A DNA stretch of 64,000 bases from Escherichia coli (GCF_001677475.2 NZ_CP015229.1), one strand, 5' to 3'; positions 52,199-58,156 are shown, counted from the stretch's first letter. Translations and numbers: made by a program. The notes: generated by a model not told the origin, from the sequence alone.

Positions 52199-53011
52199 TC
52201 AGCACTCAACAAACTGATGCTGTTCATTAAGGCGATAGCGGACTCCGGCTCGAATATTGTTTTCACCTTCAATGGCGACGGCGAAGCGAACTCTTTCGCC
52301 GTCATGATATGCCAGTGCGGCGCTTCCCCCTGGCCCGAGAATAATTGAGTCGACCACGCCCGTGCTCACTATTGTTGAATCTTCACCGCTGGCAATGATG
52401 TGTACATTGTCGCCGCTGTTGGCAATTCTGGCGTTTGCGCCAAAGCTGGCGATTTGCACCAGGTCACCATTACTGGCGACATGACACCGTTCACCCAATG
52501 TACAAACGCGTACTCGCATTCCGGTATTCGCAATCCGACTACTATCTCCAGCGCTGCTTATCCGCGAAGAATTACCGGTTACAGCAACCCGTGCGCGTTC
52601 ACCGGAGCTGCCAATGTGACTGTTAAAGCCGACACTTCCAATCCGCACGCTATAACCCATACTGGCAATTTGCGCGGCATACCCAGCGGTTGCGATTCTG
52701 GCATTATCCTCACAACAGCCGATGCGAGCATGATCGTCGCTGCGGGCAAACTGACTGCAAAATGGTCTCTCTCCGGGATCTGTGGCCAGTTTTTGCATAG
52801 AAGAAACTTCCTGATGCGCGAAGTTTTCATCCGCCAGCCATTTTTTCCACGCATACTCAACCAGACTCTCCGCCCAGTCCGTATATCCTTCCTCAATCAG
52901 TGCATGATGAATATCGGCATAACTACCGCCGCGTGGGAAATGGCGCAGGAACCAGCGATACATCACCGCTCCGATACGCCATTCTCGCAGGTCTGCTCGT
53001 GTAATGATCAT
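52199..53011 (-). CDS. ydhT: Last gene of ydhYVWXUT operon, unknown function
   Basis: 270 aa; Gly/Ser/Ala-rich repetitive central region. Confidence 0.8.
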   Translation of the reverse strand: MIITRADLREWRIGAVMYRWFLRHFPRGGSYADIHHALIEEGYTDWAESLVEYAWKKWLADENFAHQEVSSMQKLATDPGERPFCSQFARSDDHARIGCCEDNARIATAGYAAQIASMGYSVRIGSVGFNSHIGSSGERARVAVTGNSSRISSAGDSSRIANTGMRVRVCTLGERCHVASNGDLVQIASFGANARIANSGDNVHIIASGEDSTIVSTGVVDSIILGPGGSAALAYHDGERVRFAVAIEGENNIRAGVRYRLNEQHQFVEC

Positions 53012-53014
53012 TCG

Positions 53015-53800
53015 TTAGTGCCGGTGATAGCCATCGACCATGCTTTTAAAGGTTTCGTGTGGCGTACGCCCCGTGGTGCAAAGATAAAGATGACCGAAGA
53101 TAAAAAAGAGGCTTATAAATGCCAGAGCAAAATGCGCCTGCAATAACCAGTATCTTACGCCAGGAAACACATCTCCCACGGCTTGCGGATAGAGACACAG
53201 CAGCCCCGTCAATAGTAACAACGGCAGCAATCCATACATGACACCAACATAGGCGACCTGCTGTAAGGGATTAAATTTAGACTGTGTTGTTGCCGGGAAA
53301 GGATGTTCTTCCCCCTGCATAATACCAAACAAATAAAATCGCGTTTGTTTTGCCGCTCGCTCCAGCCAACCCTGACGACGAATGCGATAGTGGTGACCAT
53401 TACCCCCAACGGCATTGATCAGAACAAAGCCGAGCCAGCATGCGAGTAACAAAAATCCGCAAACTTCATGCACCGCAACCAGACTTTTAACCGCAGTTGC
53501 GCCCACCAGCGCAAAGTGATTTATCAGCCCACTTGCCAGCAACAATACAAAGAGTAACGCATTCGACCAGTGCCATAATCTGACCGCTTTGCTGTAAAGA
53601 TAAATCTTCTCACCATAATCGGTGACTGATTTCTTCACGCCACGAGCACGAAGCAAGGCATGCAGCCCCAGCACCAACCACATCCCAACCAGCAATACTC
53701 CGGCAATGATCAACCACACCGACCAAAATTCCGGAGTGAACTGTGGCACATAGTTCGTCAACTGGCTCTGAAACTGTTCAGCATGTTGCGACGGGTTCAT
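53015..53800 (-). CDS. ydhU: PhsC/NrfD-like membrane subunit
   Basis: 261 aa; polytopic membrane protein; overlaps ydhX stop by 4 nt. Confidence 0.8.
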   Translation of the reverse strand: MNPSQHAEQFQSQLTNYVPQFTPEFWSVWLIIAGVLLVGMWLVLGLHALLRARGVKKSVTDYGEKIYLYSKAVRLWHWSNALLFVLLLASGLINHFALVGATAVKSLVAVHEVCGFLLLACWLGFVLINAVGGNGHHYRIRRQGWLERAAKQTRFYLFGIMQGEEHPFPATTQSKFNPLQQVAYVGVMYGLLPLLLLTGLLCLYPQAVGDVFPGVRYWLLQAHFALAFISLFFIFGHLYLCTTGRTPHETFKSMVDGYHRH

Positions 53801-54465
53801 ACATTTTCCTTTTTAATCAAATGTTGACCGAACCGGCGATACAGATGCGGTTTCCCGGCACCTGGTAGCTGATATTGATAGTATTTATTTTCCTGCAACC
53901 ACGCCTGAATTTCTGGACTATCTTCGCGACCAAAGATCAATGCGTGCTCCGGGCAGGCGCTGACGCAAATGGGCGGAAAGCCTTTTGCCAGTCGGGACTC
54001 AGCGCATAAATCACATTTATCTGCCACTTTAGTGACAGGGTTAAGGTAGCGAACCTGGTACGGACAAGCGCCAATGCAATAACTGCAGCCAATGCACTGC
54101 GATTTTTCTACCCGCACGATCCCCTGCTCATCACGCCACGATGCCCCCGTCGGGCAAACGTCGATGCACGGAGCATCTTCGCAGTGCTGACATGACTGGC
54201 GAAAAAAGTGATACTGCGTTTCGTTGTCGTTATCGGTGACTGGAATATGTGCTATCGATAAACGGCTTCCCTGAGCGGGGACGTGGTTAGTTTTACGGCA
54301 TGCGCGGGCGCAAATATTACAGCCATTGCACCGTGACTCGTCATGAATCATGGCATACCGAACTTCCTTTTCTTGCCTCGTGTTCGCTAACAGAGAAGAC
54401 GCAGAACCAGTAAAAAAGATTACTGTTCCCATCCCCAGAACAAATTTGCGTCGAGTAAAGGACAT
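53797..54465 (-). CDS. ydhX: Tat-exported 4Fe-4S ferredoxin-like subunit
   Basis: ORF 53797-54516; start at internal ATG 54465 giving twin-arginine signal MSFTRRKFVLGMG; four Cys clusters. Confidence 0.8.
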   Translation of the reverse strand: MSFTRRKFVLGMGTVIFFTGSASSLLANTRQEKEVRYAMIHDESRCNGCNICARACRKTNHVPAQGSRLSIAHIPVTDNDNETQYHFFRQSCQHCEDAPCIDVCPTGASWRDEQGIVRVEKSQCIGCSYCIGACPYQVRYLNPVTKVADKCDLCAESRLAKGFPPICVSACPEHALIFGREDSPEIQAWLQENKYYQYQLPGAGKPHLYRRFGQHLIKKENV

Positions 54466-54528
54466 CTGATTATCCCCTAATGCAGTGGCTGCAACTGTCC
54501 ACCCTATCCATGACATCTCCCTGAAATT

Positions 54529-57294: not shown

Positions 57295-57314
57295 GATTTT
57301 TTCCTTTGCAAGAT

Positions 57315-57941
57315 TCACACAGTAATATCTTTCCACTCGATAATTTTTAACGCCCCTGTTGGGCAGGCGTTTGCGCATTCACCGCATAACACACATTTCG
57401 AGGATTTTTTACTTTCGGTATTTACGGTGGCCATCATCCACGGGCATGCCGTAGTACAGGCGCTACAGCCAATACAACGTTTATGATCGACGGTAATACA
57501 CCCTTCTTTCTGCTGCCAGGTCATCGCACCAATCGGGCAGACGTTCATGCATTGCGGCTCTTTGCATTGACGGCAGGTGTCCGCGGTATAGTTGAGATCG
57601 CCATACAGGCCGCCGCCAGAGCCAACCCCGTTGTCGCCAAAGAAATAATTGCGATGGATTTTGATACGGGAGAAGAATGTCCCTACTGAGCCATCGTTGA
57701 AGTTGGTACAAGAGATTTCACAGCGGTGGCAACCCGTGCATCGCGCACGTTGGGTCACCAATACCCCTTTGGGTGTATTTATCAACCCTACCGTGCCGCT
57801 ATCAATATCTTCCTGTTTGCAACCCAAAAGTGACAGTAACGCAGGGGCAATTGTTAGACCAGCGAGGCCTTTTCCTGATATACGCAAGAATTCTAATCGC
57901 GTTAAGCCAATATCTAATAGTGGACGATCAACCGGGTTCAT
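57315..57941 (-). CDS. ydhY: 4Fe-4S ferredoxin-type protein
   Basis: 208 aa; multiple CxxCxxCxxxCP motifs; first gene of operon. Confidence 0.85.
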   Translation of the reverse strand: MNPVDRPLLDIGLTRLEFLRISGKGLAGLTIAPALLSLLGCKQEDIDSGTVGLINTPKGVLVTQRARCTGCHRCEISCTNFNDGSVGTFFSRIKIHRNYFFGDNGVGSGGGLYGDLNYTADTCRQCKEPQCMNVCPIGAMTWQQKEGCITVDHKRCIGCSACTTACPWMMATVNTESKKSSKCVLCGECANACPTGALKIIEWKDITV

Positions 57942-58142
57942 TTATTTCGCATCCTCTTCGCAAACACAGTGCTGACAATTCAGCAGCCTGATATTAAGCA
58001 TTCAACTAATACGCTGCTGACTCTGTCCCCAACACCAGATATTTTCCCTAACCCGATAGTGTATGAGAAAAGATTTAACGCTGATAAACTAATCCTTTAT
58101 GGTTAGGAGAAAAAATAATGTGATTATTCTGAGCTCTTAACA

Positions 58143-58156
58143 TTGATCGTTATCAA
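58143..58156. promoter_or_regulatory. FNR-type box TTGAT-N4-ATCAA upstream of ydhY
   Basis: Perfect match to the FNR/CRP-family half-site spacing in AT-rich region about 200 bp upstream of ydhY start. Confidence 0.5.

Follow-up and report, generated by a model that had tools for sequence, protein, structure and literature searches.

The ydhYVWXUT operon of Escherichia coli as an oxygen-starvation-induced, membrane-linked molybdenum enzyme system

The ydhYVWXUT operon is among the last molybdoenzyme systems of Escherichia coli without a substrate. It has been described in strain K-12 (b1674-b1669; Partridge et al. 2008; Myers et al. 2013; Reschke et al. 2019), and the literature on the aldehyde oxidoreductase (AOR)/WOR family names the E. 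coli enzyme (EcYdh) as a member of class V WOR, which makes up about 10% of the family and is common in gut bacteria. The literature to June 2026 assigns neither an activity nor a physiological role to class V enzymes, in agreement with an earlier note on the DNA examined here, which called the substrate unestablished. CsWOR41 of Cetobacterium somerae (Putumbaka et al. 2026), a member of the same clade, shares the L-S-W core (YdhV-YdhY-YdhW), a leader of the twin-arginine translocation (Tat) type on the S subunit, an L subunit that is 58-59% identical, and the lack of a known activity. It prefers tungsten, has a canonical twin-arginine (RR) leader, has tatA/C, fdhD and moeA adjacent, and lacks YdhX, YdhU and YdhT, whereas the E. 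coli enzyme prefers molybdenum and has an R-L leader, an extra YdhXU quinone module and YdhT. BamB resembles YdhV in its AOR fold, in a Cys metal ligand shortly after a CxxCxxxC motif and in the loss of the aldehyde-type second shell. However, BamB is cytoplasmic, obligately tungsten-dependent and part of the large bifurcating BamB-I complex for very low-potential ring reduction, whereas YdhV is molybdenum-preferring, associated with Tat export and presumably wired to the quinone pool; their similarity past the N-domain is weak. Salmonella PhsABC likewise combines a periplasmic molybdenum catalytic subunit and a four-cluster ferredoxin with a PhsC-type cytochrome b coupled to menaquinol, but the catalytic subunit of the ydh system does not belong to the dimethyl sulfoxide (DMSO) reductase family, whose cofactor is bis-MGD (a pair of molybdopterin guanine dinucleotides), and the system has the extra ferredoxin YdhY together with YdhW and YdhT. 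Finally, FdnGHI with FdhD offers a Tat-exported catalytic subunit, a four-cluster subunit and a di-haem cytochrome b of the same Pfam family, and linkage to FdhD is seen in relatives of the ydh core; the ydh enzyme differs in carrying bis-molybdopterin (bis-MPT) in an AOR fold rather than bis-MGD, in lacking selenocysteine and in having no reported formate activity.

In a stretch of E. coli DNA of 64,000 nucleotides (GCF_001677475.2, NZ_CP015229.1; the whole stretch is called the window below), positions 52199-57941 on the minus strand and the promoter upstream of them are the already described ydhYVWXUT operon, with allelic differences only. The system is thus not new, as the earlier note had conceded and the K-12 publications confirm, and the window itself adds nothing new on it. 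The RefSeq annotation of the matching E. coli region has the same six genes, the locus is 98.0% identical to K-12 at the DNA level, the proteins differ from those of K-12 at between 1 position (YdhY, YdhV) and 17 positions (YdhW), and all six products reach the equivalog cut-offs of NCBIfam. All six open reading frames (ORFs) are co-oriented and intact and begin with ATG, and the spacers from ydhY to ydhT are +20, +12, +63, -4 (an overlap of ydhX and ydhU) and +3 nucleotides, so the tightly packed six-gene layout reported earlier holds. The genes are as follows.

ydhY, 57315-57941, minus strand: 208 amino acids; ferredoxin with four [4Fe-4S] clusters (WorS) and a degenerate Tat-type leader; Pfam Fer4 families; NCBIfam PRK09898, 435 bits.
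ydhV, 55192-57294, minus strand: 700 amino acids; pterin subunit of the AOR/WOR family (WorL); AFOR_N and AFOR_C; NCBIfam PRK09849, 1374 bits.
ydhW, 54529-55179, minus strand: 216 amino acids; predicted acidic cytoplasmic protein with a disordered N-terminus containing KRQWL and two modelled winged-helix domains.
ydhX, 53797-54465, minus strand: 222 amino acids; NrfC/PhsB-like protein with four [4Fe-4S] clusters and the canonical Tat signal MSFTRRKFVLG...SLLA; Fer4_11.
ydhU, 53015-53800, minus strand: 261 amino acids; putative PhsC/FdnI-type cytochrome b; PF01292, E-value 7e-31; PRK15006.
ydhT, 52199-53011, minus strand: 270 amino acids; modelled five-helix N-domain and beta-solenoid with a 9-residue repeat; Enterobacterales-specific.

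Longer alternative ORFs exist for ydhV (728 amino acids) and ydhX (239 amino acids). We kept the annotated starts because the alignment with solved AORs begins at residues 3-4 of the 700-residue YdhV and because the Tat motif lies at the N-terminus of the 222-residue YdhX.

What might such an assembly do? ydhYVWXUT is an oxygen-starvation-induced, membrane-linked molybdenum enzyme system; its Fe-S, AOR and cytochrome b subunits and FNR promoter bear out the architecture of an anaerobic membrane-associated oxidoreductase proposed in the earlier note. Beyond this, we favour with modest confidence the reading that it is a Tat-exported, periplasm-facing, menaquinone-coupled respiratory molybdoenzyme with a non-aldehyde substrate. 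FNR, bound at -42.5, turns the operon on when oxygen is absent, as published. YdhV would be the catalytic subunit; it would hold bis-Mo-molybdopterin, whose metal Cys336 would ligate, and one [4Fe-4S] cluster, and would be bound to the four-cluster ferredoxin YdhY. Electrons would travel between the YdhV cluster and menaquinone/menaquinol by way of the four YdhY clusters, the four clusters of the Tat-exported YdhX and the two YdhU haems. We have a slight and speculative preference for the direction from quinol to substrate, because of the analogy with PhsABC and the repression by nitrate; the complex would then act as a terminal reductase when both oxygen and nitrate are absent, PhsABC-like except that its catalytic subunit is of the AOR family. 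As substrate, a small extracytoplasmic molecule other than an aldehyde is probable, and the cofactor probably bears a sulfido ligand installed by FdhD. More speculatively, YdhW might stay cytoplasmic and escort YdhYV during assembly or export, and YdhT might be a lineage-specific cytoplasmic accessory protein. The extracytoplasmic orientation is suggested by the Tat features of the family (the RR signal of YdhX, and the RR leaders and tat genes of relatives) and agrees with the published description of class V WOR.

Is the operon still functional in E. coli? A megablast search with 52000-58700 gave matches in 5425 of 5426 complete E. coli genomes, with at least 80% query coverage in 5397; identity at this locus never exceeds 98.5% in any of the 5426. 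The window therefore stems from a non-K-12 lineage of the E. coli group, or from Shigella, that has no representative in this set. Ratios of nonsynonymous to synonymous substitution rates (dN/dS) of 0.01-0.12 across the six genes indicate purifying selection, with values of 0.01-0.02 for YdhV and 0.07-0.12 for YdhW. Much more variation is seen in ydhW than in any of the other five genes: its 17 differences from K-12 include a 4-residue indel in the disordered N-terminus. The low dN/dS and the presence in 5397 of 5426 genomes together argue that the operon is functional. They also lead us to reject, as having almost no chance of being right, the view that it is a cryptic or decaying relic without a current function in E. 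coli. That view can draw on one data set in which the transcript was below detection in MG1655, on a published delta-ydhX mutant without a virulence defect, and on the lack of any known phenotype or substrate, but it leaves unexplained why six ORFs are intact, why promoter elements are conserved and why FNR- and Fur-dependent expression has been published.

The earlier assignment of an AOR-family pterin enzyme was upheld by the domain search, which placed YdhV in the family through AFOR_N (PF02730, E-value 1.3e-67, full profile) and AFOR_C (PF01314, E-value 6.3e-48). Profile comparison with the PDB matched nine solved AOR/FOR/BamB/WOR5 chains, and no solved structure of YdhV was found among the PDB matches. 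YdhV has no signal peptide, its N-terminus aligning from residue 3-4 of the solved AORs. The motif CxxCxxxC lies at residues 307-314, and C307, C310, C314 and C336 are invariant in 30 diverse members of the clade; C487 and C493 are candidates for the distal fourth Cys of the cluster, neither of them invariant. Cys336, within an invariant N-T-Cys, lies 22 residues past the third cluster Cys, compared with 18 for Glu313 of PfAOR and 16 for Cys322 of BamB, a correspondence drawn from spacing in the profile alignments to PDB chains rather than from residue-level alignment. A review likewise credits YdhV, in common with BamB, with a Cys ligand (Cys336) and notes that the second-shell residues found in aldehyde-oxidising AORs are missing. 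According to papers that cite Reschke et al. (2019), YdhV binds a redox-active bis-Mo-MPT cofactor, and no substrate was found for the purified protein.

These observations bear on whether YdhV could serve aldehyde detoxification as a true periplasmic aldehyde:quinone oxidoreductase, which is what the name “aldehyde ferredoxin oxidoreductase” in RefSeq suggests. Full-length AFOR_N and AFOR_C matches and the NCBIfam equivalog of that name speak for such a role, as does the enrichment of ydhU in published genomic-library selections on furfural and butanediol; the negative aldehyde assays, moreover, were made on isolated and possibly damaged L subunits. The signature of aldehyde-oxidising AORs (AOR sensu stricto, FOR and GAPOR), which comprises a second shell with Glu313 (EYE-S motif) and His448 and no protein ligand to the metal, is nevertheless absent from YdhV as judged by spacing for the Glu and by the review for the second shell, the invariant Cys336 stands near the position of the catalytic Glu, and the homologue CsWOR41L, a clade-mate, was inactive on 46 aldehydes. 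We consider an aldehyde-detoxifying role quite unlikely. YdhV is thus a member of the AOR/WOR family by sequence but probably not an aldehyde oxidoreductase, and “AOR family” should not be taken to mean the latter, because of Cys336 and the inactivity of the clade-mate.

The membrane subunit YdhU had been called “PhsC/NrfD-like”, of which the first half stood and the second did not. PF01292, the cytochrome b family of FdnI, HyaC and PhsC, is its sole Pfam match at E-value ≤ 0.01, it has about five hydrophobic segments, and among NCBIfam models it scores 453 bits against the PhsC model PRK15006 (cut-off 204) versus 27 bits against FdnI. An NrfD-like identity was rejected in the absence of a PF03916 match, NrfD/PsrC being a haem-free eight-helix quinol subunit; the joint label is wrong because it conflates two unrelated families of membrane subunits. 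Four transmembrane histidines of YdhU (H77, H111, H223 and H237) are invariant in 8 orthologues, the last two being 14 residues apart. The same 14-residue spacing occurs in FdnI. YdhU is accordingly predicted to be a di-haem cytochrome b of the PhsC/FdnI type. RefSeq/PGAP names 53015-53800 “phsC, thiosulfate reductase cytochrome B subunit”; this label is probably over-specific, a transfer from PRK15006, because no phsA or phsB is present.

The cytochrome b also raises the question of direction. The same complex with the same topology might run in reverse, as a quinone-reducing dehydrogenase like formate dehydrogenase-N, in which a small periplasmic donor would feed the menaquinone pool for fumarate, DMSO or trimethylamine N-oxide respiration. 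If the link to FdhD holds, the metal would be coordinated by four dithiolene sulfurs, one Cys and one sulfido ligand, which is the first coordination sphere of formate dehydrogenase. YdhU and FdnI belong to the same PF01292 family and have the same His spacing, and activation by FNR with repression by nitrate also fits hydrogenase-2, a donor enzyme. Yet the best model for YdhU is PhsC, which serves a reductase, and not FdnI; and donor-specific genes occur in no neighbourhood. We regard the dehydrogenase as possible though doubtful.

We are interested in how far the unit extends beyond E. coli. Scanning one genome per species with a YdhV alignment gave 308 YdhV relatives, from which 80 loci were kept; the local mapping with hidden Markov models is reported over 82 loci. 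YdhW adjoins YdhYV in 77 of the 82, across Proteobacteria, Firmicutes, Fusobacteria and spirochaetes, and most of the absences are truncated contigs. This distribution points to the YdhY-YdhV-YdhW core, not the six-gene set, as the conserved functional unit. Beyond the core, the loci are of two types, according to whether YdhX and YdhU are present (XU type) or not (non-XU type).

XU type, 43 loci: Enterobacterales and Telmatospirillum; YdhX, YdhU and usually YdhT; no tatA/tatC nearby.
Non-XU type, 39 loci: Clostridia, Cetobacterium, Halanaerobiales, spirochaetes, Faecalibacterium and Coriobacteriia; without YdhX, YdhU and YdhT; tatA and/or tatC within 10 kb in 26/39.

The E. coli locus has the features of class V WOR (clade 41): ydhY and ydhV are adjacent, the YdhY leader combines a single-Arg motif with a hydrophobic region, and there are the further electron-transport subunits YdhX and YdhU. 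The earlier note had proposed a comparison of genomic context as a source of substrate-related genes; run on 33 de-duplicated non-XU loci, with genes within 5.5 kb counted, it returned maturation and export genes and no clues to the substrate. No recurrent catabolic gene family was found near the ydh core in these 33 loci. The recurrent neighbours are listed below.

TatC: 14/33 loci.
FdhD: 13/33 loci.
MoeA-like: 11/33 loci.
Extra polyferredoxin: 6/33 loci.
Tup/Mod-like ABC transporter: 3-6/33 loci.
XdhC: 4/33 loci.
MoaA: 3/33 loci.

We take the enzyme to be respiratory rather than part of a pathway because the recurrent neighbours are only genes for Tat, molybdenum cofactor synthesis, Tup/Mod-like transporters and ferredoxins. 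The linkage to FdhD and XdhC suggests a sulfurated cofactor. The proximity of FdhD, MoeA and TatAE/TatC to CsWOR41 was already noted in the 2026 paper on that enzyme (Putumbaka et al. 2026). A metagenomic proteobacterial locus (L092, 2092-12072) encodes, in this order, MobB, MoaA, FdhD, YdhY, YdhV, YdhW, YdhX, YdhU, MoeA and a cytochrome c, without YdhT; with FdhD directly upstream of ydhY and cofactor maturation genes of its own, this ydh cluster appears self-contained. Tandem YdhY-YdhV pairs occur in some loci from metagenome-assembled genomes of Firmicutes and Halanaerobiales (L069, 4467-7311 and 9257-12088; L074), and in these loci one pair is followed by a polyferredoxin of 363-380 amino acids instead of YdhW.

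The two ferredoxin-like Fe-S proteins of the earlier note are confirmed, each having 16 Cys in four ferredoxin-type motifs (YdhY has C41 in addition), but the statement that one of them bears a Tat signal was only partly right. YdhX does carry the only canonical signal in the E. coli operon, MSFTRRKFVLGMGTVIFFTGSASSLLA (MSFTRRKF), and is on a published list of predicted E. coli Tat substrates; its closest other NCBIfam similarities are to NrfC, DsrO and TtrB, all under the cut-offs of those models. YdhY also has a Tat-type leader, consisting of TRLEFLR, a hydrophobic region and LLGC41, in which the second Arg is replaced (R-L for R-R), so that the canonical Tat motif is not present. We compared 63 distinct N-termini of YdhY orthologues. 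Those of non-XU loci have S/T-R-R-x-F-L-K in 33/33 intact cases, followed by a hydrophobic region and often LxGC. XU-type leaders read T/S-R-[L/Q]-x-F-L-R in all 42 recovered from the 43 loci, with the remaining leader strictly conserved, and that of L092 has R-K. The E. coli leader with its single arginine is unusual, its export route is directly testable, and it calls for a qualification, at the level of sequence, where the S subunit is usually said to have a Tat signal.

A leader of this kind suggests another possibility, namely that YdhYV is not exported in Enterobacterales and that R-L marks the vestige of a Tat signal, comparable to that of NarG, which would serve only to bind a chaperone or to dock at the membrane. 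A cytoplasm-facing dimer would then be linked via the YdhU haems to periplasmic YdhX as a transmembrane redox conduit. The second Arg has become L, Q or K in all 42 recovered XU-type leaders as well as in L092 and L093, and YdhY is not among the predicted E. coli Tat substrates. There are also precedents, in the remnant Tat motif of NarG and in transmembrane complexes such as DsrMKJOP. Arguing the other way are the strict conservation of the hydrophobic region and LxGC, the motifs of all relatives outside the Proteobacteria, which mark them clearly as Tat substrates, and the fact that YdhX would sit in the periplasm without a catalytic partner. The R-K pair, moreover, as found in L092, is a Tat variant known to be tolerated. 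Retention of YdhYV in the cytoplasm therefore seems unlikely to us, and export remains the reading we prefer.

The local copy of Pfam gave no match for YdhW or YdhT; newer Pfam families cover them as PF27264 (YdhW_C) and PF27195, respectively. YdhW, which lacks a signal peptide and has an isoelectric point (pI) of 4.3, is modelled as a tandem of two winged-helix domains. Its family is broad (515 representatives at E-value ≤ 0.001), and distant homologues also adjoin AFOR genes. The adjacency to YdhYV, the lack of a signal peptide and the low pI are what suggest an escort. In its proposed role YdhW resembles TorD, DmsD, NarJ, NapD, HyaE and HybE, since it is a small cytoplasmic protein encoded beside a Tat-exported cofactor enzyme and, in many genomes, beside tatAC; unlike all-helical TorD, it is predicted to consist of two winged helices. 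An identity as a TorD/DmsD/NarJ-type chaperone was rejected because the predicted fold is not all-alpha and TorD-like.

In XU loci, YdhW is extended at its N-terminus by a disordered segment that contains [KR]-R-[RKQH]-[WLF]-[LF]; YdhW of non-XU loci lacks this segment. In proteobacterial loci, a single-Arg YdhY leader (residues 1-41; 57819-57941 in the window) thus occurs together with a twin-arginine-like YdhW N-terminus (residues 1-40, 55060-55179; KRQWL, RRRWL or RRRFL), and non-proteobacterial loci show the opposite for both. The two features probably arose in one evolutionary event, since both are confined to one clade. It is tempting to go further and to propose that YdhW is a new kind of Tat-substrate escort, with two winged-helix domains and dedicated to the Cys-ligated clade-41 pterin enzymes; in Proteobacteria, where YdhY has lost its second Arg (R-L, R-Q or R-K), the RRRWL, RRRFL or KRQWL of YdhW would supply or mimic the RR, and export of YdhYV would depend on YdhW and/or on hitch-hiking with YdhX. 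We regard this specific proposal as very unlikely to be correct.

YdhT is modelled (mean predicted local distance difference test score, pLDDT, 90.7) as a five-helix domain followed by a beta-solenoid in which an invariant Gly recurs at nine-residue intervals. Its narrow family comprises 47 clusters, from Enterobacterales. A Foldseek search returned nothing significant; among solved folds, a Ca-dependent antifreeze beta-helix, curli and RTX blocks come nearest, and YdhT lacks their motifs. It was also considered as an RTX/beta-roll nonapeptide protein, which would be secreted and have Ca-binding GGxGxD, and does not have these features.

Several points weigh against the exported respiratory enzyme that we favour. 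The R-L change might block YdhY's own Tat targeting, so that a periplasmic YdhYV in E. coli would require hitch-hiking or tolerance of the variant. Lipidation of Cys41, were it to occur, would by the Lol rules imply sorting to the outer membrane because of the Lys at +2, in conflict with the model. The list of predicted Tat substrates on which YdhX appears does not include YdhY. The fold predicted for YdhW differs from that of TorD, DmsD and NarJ, and a winged helix could also bind nucleic acid. No fdhD is linked to the operon in E. coli. One published study found the transcript below detection in anaerobic MG1655. The published negative aldehyde assays used isolated L subunits, which were perhaps simply inactive. 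According to the literature, activity has been measured for no member of the clade, and for this reason the substrate class and the direction of electron flow are only inferred. We therefore offer the comparative observations (the YdhYVW core, the YdhW fold, the single-arginine leader and the FdhD linkage) as leads for experiments, not as discoveries. When assayed, the enzyme may best be viewed as a complete, FdhD-matured, Tat-exported complex acting on non-aldehydes.

The control region contains the following elements.

FNR box TTGAT-N4-ATCAA TTGATCGTTATCAA, 58143-58156 (centre 58149.5), no strand: class II activator site; sole perfect match in the 64 kb.
Inferred -10 hexamer CATTAT, 58115-58120, minus strand: spacing fits an inferred start at about 58107; conserved in Citrobacter.
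NarL/NarP-type 7-2-7 site TAACCATAAAGGATTA, 58090-58105, no strand: 2 mismatches to TACYYMT-N2-AKRRGTA; spans +3 to +18 of the inferred start.
Fur-box-like element, 58191-58209, no strand: a short way upstream of the FNR box; agrees with GATAATGATAATCATTATC at 14/19 positions, which places it in the top 6 of the window.
5' leader of about 166 nucleotides, 57942-58107, minus strand: follows from the start at about 58107.
fumD (ydhZ) terminator, 58364-58392, minus strand: 12-bp GC-rich hairpin and then a T-rich tail, right after the fumD stop; upstream limit of the ydhY control region.

The perfect FNR box pointed out earlier lies 202 nucleotides upstream of ydhY in a region that is indeed AT-rich (GC 0.28-0.36). 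Its count is by itself weak evidence: 0.11 perfect matches are expected in the window, and 11 of 100 shuffles contained at least one. In every Escherichia and Citrobacter species examined, both half-sites occupy the same place without a mismatch; Leminorella and Limnobaculum show a single mismatch. K-12 has identical FNR and NarL/P-type sites. Myers et al. (2013) report direct activation of ydhYVWXUT by FNR, with a chromatin immunoprecipitation (ChIP) peak and a site at -42.5, and the dependence of expression on fnr is published there and in Partridge et al. (2008). We consider the box real because of this conservation, the identity in K-12, and the published peak and activation at -42.5. The published position implies a start near 58107, with CATTAT as the -10 hexamer and a leader of 166 nucleotides; the sequence thus has the perfect conserved box and the CATTAT at the right distance that are expected of a class II FNR-activated promoter.

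At the NarL/NarP-type site, the block CCTAACC(A/C)TAAAGGATTAG is kept in Citrobacter. NarL and NarP reportedly repress the ydh operon, and a site of this type across the inferred start is consistent with such repression. The entry for the operon in one published table reads “FNR, NarL”. The core ATGATAATAAAT of the Fur-like element is invariant across Escherichia and Citrobacter while its flanks diverge, and the block agrees with the published Fur ChIP peak at ydhY and Fur regulation.

The leader was also searched for a known RNA or riboswitch, a candidate that was rejected, as Rfam gave no match at E-value ≤ 1 and the fold, with a z-score of -1.65, falls short of significance. It contains a 12-nucleotide inverted repeat (58101-58112 and 58042-58053, 83% complementary), the first arm of which overlaps the NarL/NarP-type site. 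Pairing is possible between the first 7 nucleotides of the inferred mRNA, CCUAACC, and a GGUUAGG that lies about 55 nucleotides downstream; both arms are kept in Citrobacter.

The genes that flank the operon in E. coli (ydhS, ydhR, fumD and pykF) have no evident link to it. At its downstream end, ydhS (plus strand) and ydhT (minus strand) converge at 52193-52199, where 5 nucleotides separate the stop codons, with no terminator-like hairpin detected between them. On the other side, a small ORF at about 58944-59156, between fumD and pykF, is the RefSeq-annotated small protein YnhH.

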